DNA of 53,385 nt from NCBI GenBank assembly GCA_964347045.1, contig CAYFXC010000008.1, positions 20,373 to 73,757 of the forward strand, given 5' to 3'. The stretch comes from an uncultured archaeon. GTDB lineage: Archaea; Asgardarchaeota; Hermodarchaeia; Hermodarchaeales; Hermodarchaeaceae. Every line of letters begins with the position of its first letter. Position 1 is the first letter of the stretch. The position numbers and the translations under genes are program-made. Below, piece by piece: positions 21,827 through 24,565 of this stretch. The notes below the pieces were generated by a model. The model did no database searches, had not been told where the DNA came from, and saw nothing but the letters and a program-made list of their open reading frames with translations.

Positions 21827-22582
21827 TTATGCGTATTTCTCGAGTGCCTTGTCAATTTGGTAGAGCCGTTTCTTGTATCGCTTGTATAATTTGGTATATT
21901 CGGTTGATGTAATTTCTGCCGCATCAAATTTCTGCTCAAGATTCTGCAACAAGTCTGAGATGGCTAGTTTCTCACTTTCAAGTTCGAGCTTCTCACGTTC
22001 TTTTGCATCCGCAGGAAGGATCAGGGCATCCATCTCGTCTTCATCAGTAACTTCACCGGTTGTAATAGATCCAGTGTCTATTTGGGCAGCCATTCGAGCA
22101 ATACGTTCGTCGCGATCTTGGACTTTCTTGGTTAATCGTGAAACCTCACGTTCGAGCTGTTGATACCGTTGTTGGAGCACTTCTTCCTTCGGAGGCATCG
22201 TCACTTTAGGGGCTTCTCGGGTCGCATCAGGCACAGGAGGTTCACGGGCGAACAGGCCCTTGATACTATTAACCACCTGGTAGACGTGATAATGAGGTTG
22301 CCATTGTGTGACTATTCGAAGATGAATAGCCCCAGATTCAGAATCGACTCGAGGATGCTTCGTCGGAGTAAGCATTCGTGCAACTGGCGGTTGAGCTGGA
22401 AAGTTTGGAGGTACAATAATCTCGACTAGAAATTCTTGTTTACTTCGTGGTCCACCTTTGATTTTTCCTCGCCATCGGCGAAGATTTGACTCAACGGGAG
22501 TGAACGTAGGCGCACGACGATACATCAATTGCGCTTCACGAGCAATCGCCAATTCTTGTTGACTTCTTACAGCCTGTGCCAT
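21827..22582 (-). CDS. vps23: ESCRT-I Vps23/TSG101-like protein (UEV + coiled coil + steadiness box)
   Basis: PPNFPAQPP and HPRVD UBC fold without the catalytic Cys; coiled coil; C-terminal AISDLLQNLEQKF...ITSTEYTKLYKR. Confidence 0.88.
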   Translation of the reverse strand: MAQAVRSQQELAIAREAQLMYRRAPTFTPVESNLRRWRGKIKGGPRSKQEFLVEIIVPPNFPAQPPVARMLTPTKHPRVDSESGAIHLRIVTQWQPHYHVYQVVNSIKGLFAREPPVPDATREAPKVTMPPKEEVLQQRYQQLEREVSRLTKKVQDRDERIARMAAQIDTGSITTGEVTDEDEMDALILPADAKEREKLELESEKLAISDLLQNLEQKFDAAEITSTEYTKLYKRYKKRLYQIDKALEKYA

Positions 22583-22665: not shown

Positions 22666-23202
22666 TCAGGTTGAACTACTCTTAGTTTTTTGTTTTGTTG
22701 CCATGCTCTTTTTCGAGGGGGTATCATTAACAGCTTGTCGGACGGTAACCAGAATGTTGCTTTGAAGCTCACGAAGAAATTCTTCAAAGCGCGTTTCAAA
22801 GAGGGTAATCATTTCCTCAAGTCGTTGAACCGCTTGGGTCAATGTAGGAACTAGTTCTTTTTGAAGTTCCCGTAGTTCCTTTGAATTGGATTCGGGCTTT
22901 TTCTTTGTCACTTTGTCCATGGTTTTTTCAAAGGTTTCAAATCGATCGACAAGAACTCCTAGTCGTTCAACCGAAGACTCTGAAGCAATGGTATCATCGG
23001 CTACAAGCTTCTGAAGTGTTTTGACCTCCCGAAGAAGGGCCCGAATATTTGCTTCCATCTTTAGATTCATCCGCCCGATGTCTGAGTCAAGTAGGTTCAG
23101 ACCTTTCACTATTCGCTTCAGGGATTCAACAGTAGGCACCAATCCTTTAGGCGTTTTGATGGCTTCAATCTCGATAGCGTATTTTGGTGGATCAGAGGAC
23201 AC
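22666..23202 (-). CDS. Coiled-coil protein of unknown function heading the ESCRT-I/II gene run
   Basis: Heptad-rich 178 aa ORF, same strand and directly upstream of vps23. Confidence 0.65.
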   Translation of the reverse strand: MSSDPPKYAIEIEAIKTPKGLVPTVESLKRIVKGLNLLDSDIGRMNLKMEANIRALLREVKTLQKLVADDTIASESSVERLGVLVDRFETFEKTMDKVTKKKPESNSKELRELQKELVPTLTQAVQRLEEMITLFETRFEEFLRELQSNILVTVRQAVNDTPSKKSMATKQKTKSSST

Positions 23203-23401: not shown

Positions 23402-23653
23402 ATGACACAATCAGCAGGACGGTTTGTAATTTCATCGGTGAAAGAAATTGGCCGATGGGATTGGACCAAATCAACTGCAATGTGTTGTGTCTGTCGCCTC
23501 CAGATCCGTGATGGTGAGCAAATGGTTCATTGCCCGCATTGCGGCAATCCCGCCCATTATCGGCACTTGGCAGAATGGGTGAAGATGAAAGGCACTTGTC
23601 CTATCTGTCGGAACCGTATTACCCTACGAAGGTTGAAACCGGTTAGAAAATAG
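23402..23653 (+). CDS. Small RING-finger E3 ligase, Rbx1/Apc11-like
   Basis: CCVC...CPHCGNPAHYRHLAEWVKMKGTCPIC; probable start ATG 23402; abuts the ubiquitin gene. Confidence 0.85.
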   Translation: MTQSAGRFVISSVKEIGRWDWTKSTAMCCVCRLQIRDGEQMVHCPHCGNPAHYRHLAEWVKMKGTCPICRNRITLRRLKPVRK

Positions 23654-23902
23654 TTGGTGGTTAAAATACGAATAGAAGTTGTACCGGCGATTGGGGGTAG
23701 TGACCCCATCGCTCTTGAAGTGGAACCTAATACAACTATTGGGGAGATTCGGAATCGTGTGGCCCAAATGCGCCGGATACCGCCCAACATTGTTATCCTT
23801 GCGTATCGTGGTGCCCAGCTAACCGATGAACAGACTGTCAAGAGTGTTGGAATCACGCCTCACGACAAATTGTACCTCATCACGAGGACCGAGGGCGGCT
23901 AG
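23654..23902 (+). CDS. Ubiquitin-like protein ending in di-glycine
   Basis: LEVEPNTTIGEIR...IPP...L.Y.G.QL.D..TV...GI...D.LYL...EGG matches the ubiquitin pattern. Confidence 0.93.
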   Translation: MVVKIRIEVVPAIGGSDPIALEVEPNTTIGEIRNRVAQMRRIPPNIVILAYRGAQLTDEQTVKSVGITPHDKLYLITRTEGG

Positions 23903-24103: not shown

Positions 24104-24565
24104 ATGCTATCAGAAGAGGACTATTGGGCAAGGTTAGCTCTTGAAGCCAAGAACATGGAAACCGAGGAACCGTCGTTCCAACCCGTTCAGGGCGACCTTA
24201 GACGATGGCAGGGATTTTTATTGGGTACTGGAATTTATGATGGAGGCGTCTTCGTCTTACAAATCAATGTTCCTCGTTCTTTTCCCTACGAACCACCACA
24301 GGTTCGATTTATCACAAAAATCTGGCATCCAAATATCTACAGGGGTCGAGTATGTGTTGGCATCTTAGGTAAGGATTGGTTACCAAGCATGTCACTAACT
24401 GGTGTTGTTGAAACACTAAGAAACCTTATGAATTTTCCTAACCCTGATGATCCATTAAATCAACGGGCGTCACGTGAAGCCAAAAGAGATCCTGTGAAGT
24501 TCGAACGAACGGCGAAAGACTGGGTACAACGCTTTGCGGGATGGGATCAGATACAACGTAGGTGA
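24104..24565 (+). CDS. Ubiquitin-conjugating enzyme E2
   Basis: YDGGVF, FPYEPPQVRFITKIWHPNI...VC..IL..DW and NPDDPLN; catalytic Cys present. Confidence 0.95.
   Translation: MLSEEDYWARLALEAKNMETEEPSFQPVQGDLRRWQGFLLGTGIYDGGVFVLQINVPRSFPYEPPQVRFITKIWHPNIYRGRVCVGILGKDWLPSMSLTGVVETLRNLMNFPNPDDPLNQRASREAKRDPVKFERTAKDWVQRFAGWDQIQRR

Follow-up and report, generated by a model that had tools for sequence, protein, structure and literature searches.

Introduction

Among the proteins considered here, only the small RING protein srfp of C. subterraneum (PMC5654768) and the Helarchaeial RING E3 (10.1101/2023.07.25.550441) have been demonstrated to act as E3s together with their cognate E1, E2 and ubiquitin. 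In srfp, the residues I30, W58 and R69 are needed for activity, and the substitutions I30Q, W58A and R69A impair the cascade (PMC5654768). The Helarchaeial cascade of E1, E2 and RING was described in an unreviewed preprint to mono-ubiquitylate UEV-Vps23 at K201 (10.1101/2023.07.25.550441). In the same work, the 'N-loop' of the Asgard RING was already described as aiding the binding of UEV-Vps23. Surface plasmon resonance of the E3 on the UEV domain gave a KD of 2.6e-4 M for the full-length protein and of 8.1e-3 M for a version without residues 1-19. It was also reported there that a JAB/MPN gene replaces the RING gene in Borrarchaeia. The clustering of ubiquitin and ESCRT genes in Asgard genomes is a known arrangement (PMC9192718; bioRxiv 10.1101/2023.07.25.550441). 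A further point of comparison is Rbx1, which holds three zinc ions per molecule, the second site ending in Asp97; the N-terminus of free Rbx1 lacks order, and a strand of 16 residues forms there only upon cullin binding (PMC3366790).

Genomic context of the RING gene

The window, i.e. the whole stretch of 53,385 nucleotides that was analysed, contains a gene for a small RING protein together with genes for ubiquitin, E2, E1 and ESCRT components. The features of the locus are the following (positions in the window).

21827..22582, minus strand: UEV-Vps23 (ESCRT-I); Pfam UQ_con 59.9 bits, UEV and Vps23_core under their cut-offs
22666..23202, minus strand: coiled-coil gene, 178 aa, no Pfam family, head-to-head with the RING gene; conserved N-terminal module KYAIEIEAIKTPKGLVPTVESLKRIV
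23402..23653, plus strand: small RING E3 gene (P0001, 83 aa), heading the RING-Ub-E2-E1 operon
23417..23467, plus strand: N-terminal arm of the RING protein, residues 6-22 (GRFVISSVKEIGRWDWT); consensus RF-[VI]-I-x-x-V-K-x-I-G-x-W-D-W-T
23483..23611, plus strand: RING cross-brace core, residues 28-70, with invariant ligands and a pLDDT of 89-95
23654..23902, plus strand: ubiquitin; Pfam ubiquitin 45.7 bits, ending in ...LITRTEGG followed by the stop
24104..24565, plus strand: E2 (UBC) enzyme; Pfam UQ_con 115.6 bits
24562..25605, plus strand: E1-like (ThiF) enzyme; Pfam ThiF 211.4 bits, start overlapping the E2 stop

The start of the RING gene was set at the ATG at position 23402, since all orthologues begin with MTQSAG and the upstream part of a longer, GTG-initiated frame is not conserved in them. 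Residues 7-32 of the translated protein read RFVISSVKEIGRWDWTKSTAMCCVCR. The ubiquitin frame starts with TTG or GTG directly after the RING stop codon (TAG, 23651-23653). On the minus strand, the coiled-coil gene beside the RING gene is part of a run with UEV-Vps23, Vps28 and EAP30, and Vps25 and Vps4 lie on the plus strand farther upstream of the RING gene. The RING-Ub-E2-E1 order was also found in the loci L006, L007 and L062, and this synteny beside ESCRT genes recurs across distant lineages. Orthologues of the RING protein with 60-94% identity are labelled as RING finger protein in metagenome-assembled genomes of Hermod-, Hod- and Odinarchaeota.

Two side observations concern the composition of the cluster. 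The ubiquitin of the window has a free GG C-terminus without a pro-peptide (23897-23902); C-terminal extensions are present in the Helarchaeial (bioRxiv 10.1101/2023.07.25.550441) and Caldiarchaeum (PMC5654768) ubiquitins. No JAB/Rpn11 gene is found in the cluster of the window; in L006 such a gene separates UEV-Vps23 from the coiled-coil gene.

The gene is the Hermodarchaeota-type orthologue of the already described Asgard operon RING E3. Like the Helarchaeial RING E3 (10.1101/2023.07.25.550441) and srfp (PMC5654768), it codes for a protein of about 80 aa and heads a Ub-E2-E1 operon beside ESCRT genes, and its product displays the same eight zinc ligands, the same E2-contact residues and the linchpin. 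With the Helarchaeial protein it further shares the conserved 'N-loop' and a coiled-coil neighbour, the uncharacterised asCOG005522 (10.1101/2023.07.25.550441). There is no difference in kind between these two proteins and the RING of the window.

The RING core

The initial annotation had described the protein as a RING E3 with an N-terminal strand of the Rbx1/Apc11 type. Membership of the Rbx1/Apc11 family was not borne out, as Pfam and PDB searches place the core with generic RING-H2 and Prok-RING fingers, an outcome named beforehand as refuting the initial reading. In Pfam, zf-RING_2 (PF13639) passed its gathering score over residues 27-70 of P0001 (28.9 bits, cut-off 27.3) and Prok-RING_1 matched with 26.2 bits. 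Both zf-rbx1 (PF12678) and zf-ANAPC11 (PF12861) were absent among the 25 Pfam matches listed for P0001 (four more were at E 0.31-1), and the RING gene was not matched in genome-wide scans with the two families. The nearest sequences in the PDB were generic RING-H2 proteins, namely EL5 (E 2.8e-7), followed by RNF165, RLIM and RNF38 (to E 1e-3), with Rbx2 at E 0.02-0.04 and Rbx1 at E 0.25-0.43. Such generic E3s (EL5, RNF165/Arkadia-like, RLIM, RNF38) provide the best sequence matches to the core and have the same fold; unlike the window RING, they are multi-domain eukaryotic proteins and lack its arm.

Structure models pointed in the same direction. The core was modelled with a pLDDT of 89-95 in two AF2 runs (21, then 32 sequences) and, compared with the PDB by Foldseek and VIA-align, superposes on generic RING/U-box domains with Z up to 9.9. 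This comparison effectively covered residues 23-83, and the 50 matches listed do not include Rbx1. The closest ESM Atlas clusters consist of archaeal zf-RING_2 fingers and not of Rbx.

The operon RING has exactly eight Cys/His ligands in the pattern CxxC..CxxC..HxxH..CxxC (C28, C31, C44, C47, H52, H55, C66 and C69), all of which are invariant in 32 sequences. The His that serves as ligand 4 in RING-H2 fingers is Asn49 here, and C44, three residues upstream of ligand 3, apparently substitutes for it. The E2-contact residues are V30, W59 and P67, with R70 as linchpin. W59 and P67 are invariant among the orthologues, V30 is conserved in at least 90%, and R70 is present. By residue numbering and motif, V30, W59 and R70 match I30, W58 and R69 of srfp from C. 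subterraneum. The protein of the window is most likely an active E2-recruiting RING.

The N-terminal arm

Sequence comparison identifies the arm as a strongly conserved, family-specific element. Conservation of the WxW strand in orthologues was a test set beforehand, and [RK]F and WDW were kept at 30/30 loci from many Asgard families, the consensus [RK]F-[VI]-I-x-x-V-K-x-I-G-x-W-D-W-T being near exceptionless among them. W19 is invariant and G17 at least 90% conserved (32 sequences), and the spacing of 10 residues from RF to W is conserved among orthologues. The arm is missing from 125 other relatives out of a search of 1.8 billion proteins and from small RINGs located outside ubiquitin operons. 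It is also missing from the three other fingers of the same RING family in the own genome (G000:C6:139166-139537, minus strand; G000:C10:37836-38018, plus strand), two of which lie in tandem inside one 224-aa frame.

The segment following the arm is more variable. In most orthologues, a spacer of five residues (range 3-7) separates WxW from the first Cys, versus six in the clade of the window, and outside that clade G or N replaces the R of CxxCR. An ungapped register of RF, WxW and CxxCR with Rbx1, as initially proposed, is correct for the window protein, but the six-residue spacer and the R are restricted to its own clade.

In two AF2 monomer runs the arm reached a pLDDT of 57-71, and DSSP called neither secondary structure nor contact with the core; the deeper alignment of 32 sequences gave 71-81 for residues 11-30. 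Because the arm was never confidently structured, its conformation is not readable from these models. The arm is predicted to be unstructured on its own, like the free N-terminus of Rbx1 (PMC3366790), and a partner is therefore expected for it. An arm-only profile made from 23 orthologues had its best PDB match in 7avk (E 0.016), an unrelated bacterial LPXTG surface-protein repeat. The matched segment, V-K-F-V-G-T-W-E-F-T, reads as strand-Gly-turn-strand from its sequence pattern.

Longer orthologues of 120-146 aa were observed as well (P0033, P0039, P0078, P0113 and P0129; loci L071 and L072; family f12 and genome G057). They carry two or three extra copies of a strand-like motif, G-x-[FHY]-[VI]-x-F, upstream of WxW. 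Polar linkers rich in Lys/Thr lie between these copies, which resemble repeated linear docking motifs.

Candidate 'Rosetta-stone' fusions were also considered (P0024, P0150, P0082 and P0058), and none of them indicates a known partner domain. In P0024 and P0150, which are membrane and helical proteins, the RING is accompanied by a degenerate arm, and P0082 combines HEAT repeats with a RING without arm. P0058 (316 aa) is a distant relative in which four WH-like repeats, judged by eye, are followed by an arm (IGNWEF) and a RING. It has no Pfam match and may represent an arm-RING fused to a WH scaffold.

The coiled-coil neighbour

The protein encoded head-to-head with the RING gene is homologous across lineages and consists of an N-terminal module followed by heptads. 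The module has the pattern K-phi-x-I-E-phi-E-A-I-x-T-P-x-G-x-V-P-T-phi-E-S-phi, in which I15, T17, P18 and G20 are invariant. The most conserved part of the protein lies within residues 7-30 (A-I-x-T-P-x-G-x-V-P-T).

The distribution of both genes was analysed in 400 Asgard genomes. The arm was found in 16 families, the coiled-coil gene in 17 and both in 15, with about 80 genomes carrying the two; these co-occurrences were counted on whole genes (arm-RING orthologue, coiled-coil gene), and related genomes are non-independent samples. Neither is present in about 15 families, e.g. f7 (0/31), f20 (0/135) and f31 (0/86). In 13 families the two genes are at most about 1.3 kb apart, mostly head-to-head. 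They are co-directional in f12 and G057, the lineages with the extra motifs, where the coiled-coil gene follows the RING gene downstream on the same strand. Non-adjacent genes were seen in f13, f4 and one genome of the genus of the window. Exceptions to the co-occurrence are f29, a single genome of 80% completeness with an arm-RING and no detected coiled-coil gene, and f24 and f25, where the coiled-coil gene occurs in 10 of 12 genomes without an arm-RING (for example among G285-G296). L007 and an ENA contig group the RING, ubiquitin and coiled-coil genes together, with no UEV gene within the stretch seen. An apparent joint decay of the RING and coiled-coil genes in G058 and G064 was rejected, as the in-frame stops of the six-frame translation precede the actual start codons, leaving both genes intact.

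A second pair was found in genome G116 (G116:C1:1913800-1916400), where a paralogous RING is encoded head-to-head with an ATPase.

L068:555-779, minus strand: paralogous, divergent RING of 74 aa which keeps the arm (RYITLTKRFLGEWKW)
L068:894-2273, plus strand: AAA ATPase of 459 aa

In the paralogous RING, WKW is separated from the first Cys by a single residue. Over its first 40 residues, the ATPase matches the N-terminal module of the coiled-coil protein (hhalign 93%, E 3e-7). The module appears to be transferable, occurring on a plain coiled coil as well as on an ATPase.

The pattern of distribution and neighbourhood shared by arm and coiled-coil gene is the classic signature of a functional pair. 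This genomic linkage makes the coiled-coil protein the foremost candidate for the partner of the arm.

Proposed mechanism

The arm is probably a family-specific docking element for the N-terminal module of the coiled-coil protein, attached to a generic two-zinc RING core, so that the protein would resemble Rbx1 in its way of working and not in its membership. The core would recruit the E2~ubiquitin of the operon through V30, W59, P67 and the linchpin R70. The arm (residues ~6-22) probably lacks order by itself and probably adopts a strand or hairpin when bound to its partner. The candidate for this partner is the N-terminal module of about 40 residues of the head-to-head coiled-coil protein, which would result in a two-part ligase, the arm working on it as the arm of Rbx1 works on the cullin. 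UEV-Vps23 would be a likely substrate and possibly a secondary contact. Identity, conservation and genomic linkage were computed here, and from them we infer the physical docking and its geometry.

Binding of a scaffold through the arm had been suggested at the outset, with the RING as a minimal E3 hinting at a cullin-RING precursor. The first part of this suggestion is plausible and agrees with an arm that is conserved, predicted to be unfolded alone and set in a docking-like genomic context. The candidate scaffold is the coiled-coil protein, no cullin having reached threshold in the own genome or in 400 Asgard genomes.

Alternative functions of the arm

An unlikely alternative, put forward for the Helarchaeial orthologue, is a role of the arm in substrate recognition: as a loop it would bind the UEV domain, so that the RING would dock directly on UEV-Vps23 of ESCRT-I and attach a single ubiquitin to its steadiness box. 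This is suggested by the K201 modification and by the loss of SPR affinity upon deletion of residues 1-19 (10.1101/2023.07.25.550441), and UEV-Vps23 lies within the same cluster in the window and in L006, L062 and L064. Against it, the affinities, sub-millimolar to millimolar, come from a single unreviewed study and are so weak (0.26 mM versus 8 mM) that a different or additional partner is indicated. Moreover, the distribution of the arm follows that of the coiled-coil gene more closely than that of UEV-Vps23, since full-length UEV-Vps23 occurs in families without arm-RING and coiled-coil gene (f7, 31/31 genomes; f11; f32; most of f10). The UEV-free stretches of L007 and the ENA contig also speak against it. 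Complex prediction with the UEV domain (1-130) and the RING, using alignment inputs, gave no answer either way (0.00, mark 0.32). As a separate observation, the Pro-containing turn of the coiled-coil module could, from its sequence, be a ligand for the peptide groove of UEV too.

It is improbable that the arm acts inside the ligase, as a hairpin on the RING, in RING dimerisation or in a contact with ubiquitin that primes the closed E2~Ub, with no scaffold involved. Flanking segments serve dimerisation or priming in many RING E3s. Such a role would fit the higher pLDDT of residues 11-30 with the deeper alignment, the strand-Gly-turn-strand of an all-beta repeat as best PDB look-alike of the arm, and the ubiquitin start abutting the RING stop, which suggests coupled synthesis. 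It is opposed by DSSP, which finds no strand or core contact in either AF2 model, and it leaves unexplained both the linkage to the coiled-coil gene and the pair of arm-RING and AAA ATPase in G116. Docking on the coiled-coil module is the reading retained here.

Comparison with Rbx1 and Apc11

The segment of Rbx1 used in the initial comparison is correct, and human RBX1 17-96 is identical to the PDB RBX1 chains letter for letter. Rbx1, Rbx2 and Apc11 resemble the protein of the window as small RINGs with an N-terminal arm of about 16 residues, in which RF and WxW are equally spaced and which is disordered without its partner (by prediction in the case of the window protein), and with a RING-H2-like core showing Ile/Val, Trp and Pro as E2-contact residues. 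They differ from it by a third zinc site and an insert of about 20 residues between the first and second ligand pairs, both missing here. With only 12 residues between C31 and C44, there is no room for this insert. The last ligand pair is CxxC here (C66-x2-C69) and Cys...Asp in Rbx1, Rbx2 and Apc11. Further differences are the mismatch of profiles and the partner: no cullin or Apc2 was found, a short coiled-coil protein being the candidate scaffold here.

It was considered whether the arm is truly homologous to the N-terminal strand by which Rbx1, Rbx2 and Apc11 form an intermolecular sheet with the alpha/beta domain of the cullin. This would make the RING an archaeal precursor of the CRL subunit, its scaffold having later become, or been replaced by, a cullin. 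The common RF-x10-WxW spacing points in this direction, as do hydrophobic residues coinciding at six positions of the arm and the disorder of both arms without partner. In an anchored profile of the arm, the Rbx1 flank scored 19.0 versus a maximum of 4.7 over 125 other RING flanks (shuffle p 0.0024), a score deriving wholly from RF and the two Trp, in a comparison that was picked after the fact. When residues 1-36 were used as query, Rbx2 was the sole PDB match (E 1.5); in Pfam, the same residues had no match and residues 1-48 had three unrelated ones. The alignment of the full families of operon RING and Rbx1 by hhalign (probability 79%) runs through the arm, with 75% reached already by the RING core alone and a 14-column gap opening opposite the Rbx1 insert.

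Other results speak against homology. The N-terminal parts alone gave P=0.019 and a probability of 2.4% in hhalign, and the arm-only profile retrieved no Rbx or Apc11 chain from the PDB at E<=10, its best match being the unrelated 7avk. The Rbx1 HMM found nothing in the own genome at E<=10, in line with the missing matches to zf-rbx1 and zf-ANAPC11. To this are added the missing third-zinc insert, the nearly invariant G17 of the operon RINGs in place of an invariant Ala in Rbx1, and a spacing from WxW to Cys that is off by one in most orthologues. From sequence, the likeness of the arm to the Rbx1 strand is weak, only modestly above chance and not family-level, and a shared origin of both arms is not established; on balance, homology appears very unlikely.

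A cullin was searched for with sequence profiles. In the own genome, which is 88.9% complete, the Pfam Cullin family was without a match, and in 400 Asgard genomes no match exceeded the cut-off (0/400); Cullin_Nedd8 gave only noise-level matches, as in control genomes. Cullins are unmentioned in two published proteome-wide structural surveys of Asgard proteins, which is a weak negative. The idea of a cullin-RING precursor thus found no support, given the lack of the third-zinc insert, of a match of the arm profile to Rbx/Apc11 and of a cullin over threshold. The precursor being unproven, the analogy is at most one of function, with a different scaffold in the form of a coiled coil. The further proposal that arm and coiled-coil module would form an intermolecular beta-sheet, giving an archaeal scaffold-RING ligase on the principle of the cullin/Rbx domain, and that the Rbx1/Apc11 strand descended from this arm, as a CRL 'plug' predating cullins, is very unlikely.

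Implications

Both the RING protein and the conserved arm have been described before, and the likeness to Rbx1 is weak. New here is the phyletic and neighbourhood link of the arm to the N-terminal module of the coiled-coil protein, which was not proposed in the earlier work (10.1101/2023.07.25.550441). The origin of the eukaryotic ubiquitin machinery has been traced to Asgard operons of this type, and the interest of the arm lies in the question of how a single small Asgard RING chooses its substrates. If the arm docks on the coiled-coil protein, the uncharacterised but conserved coiled-coil gene would gain a concrete, testable partner, and Asgard archaea would have a two-part ligase made of a catalytic RING and a scaffold, following the logic of the cullin-RING ligases.
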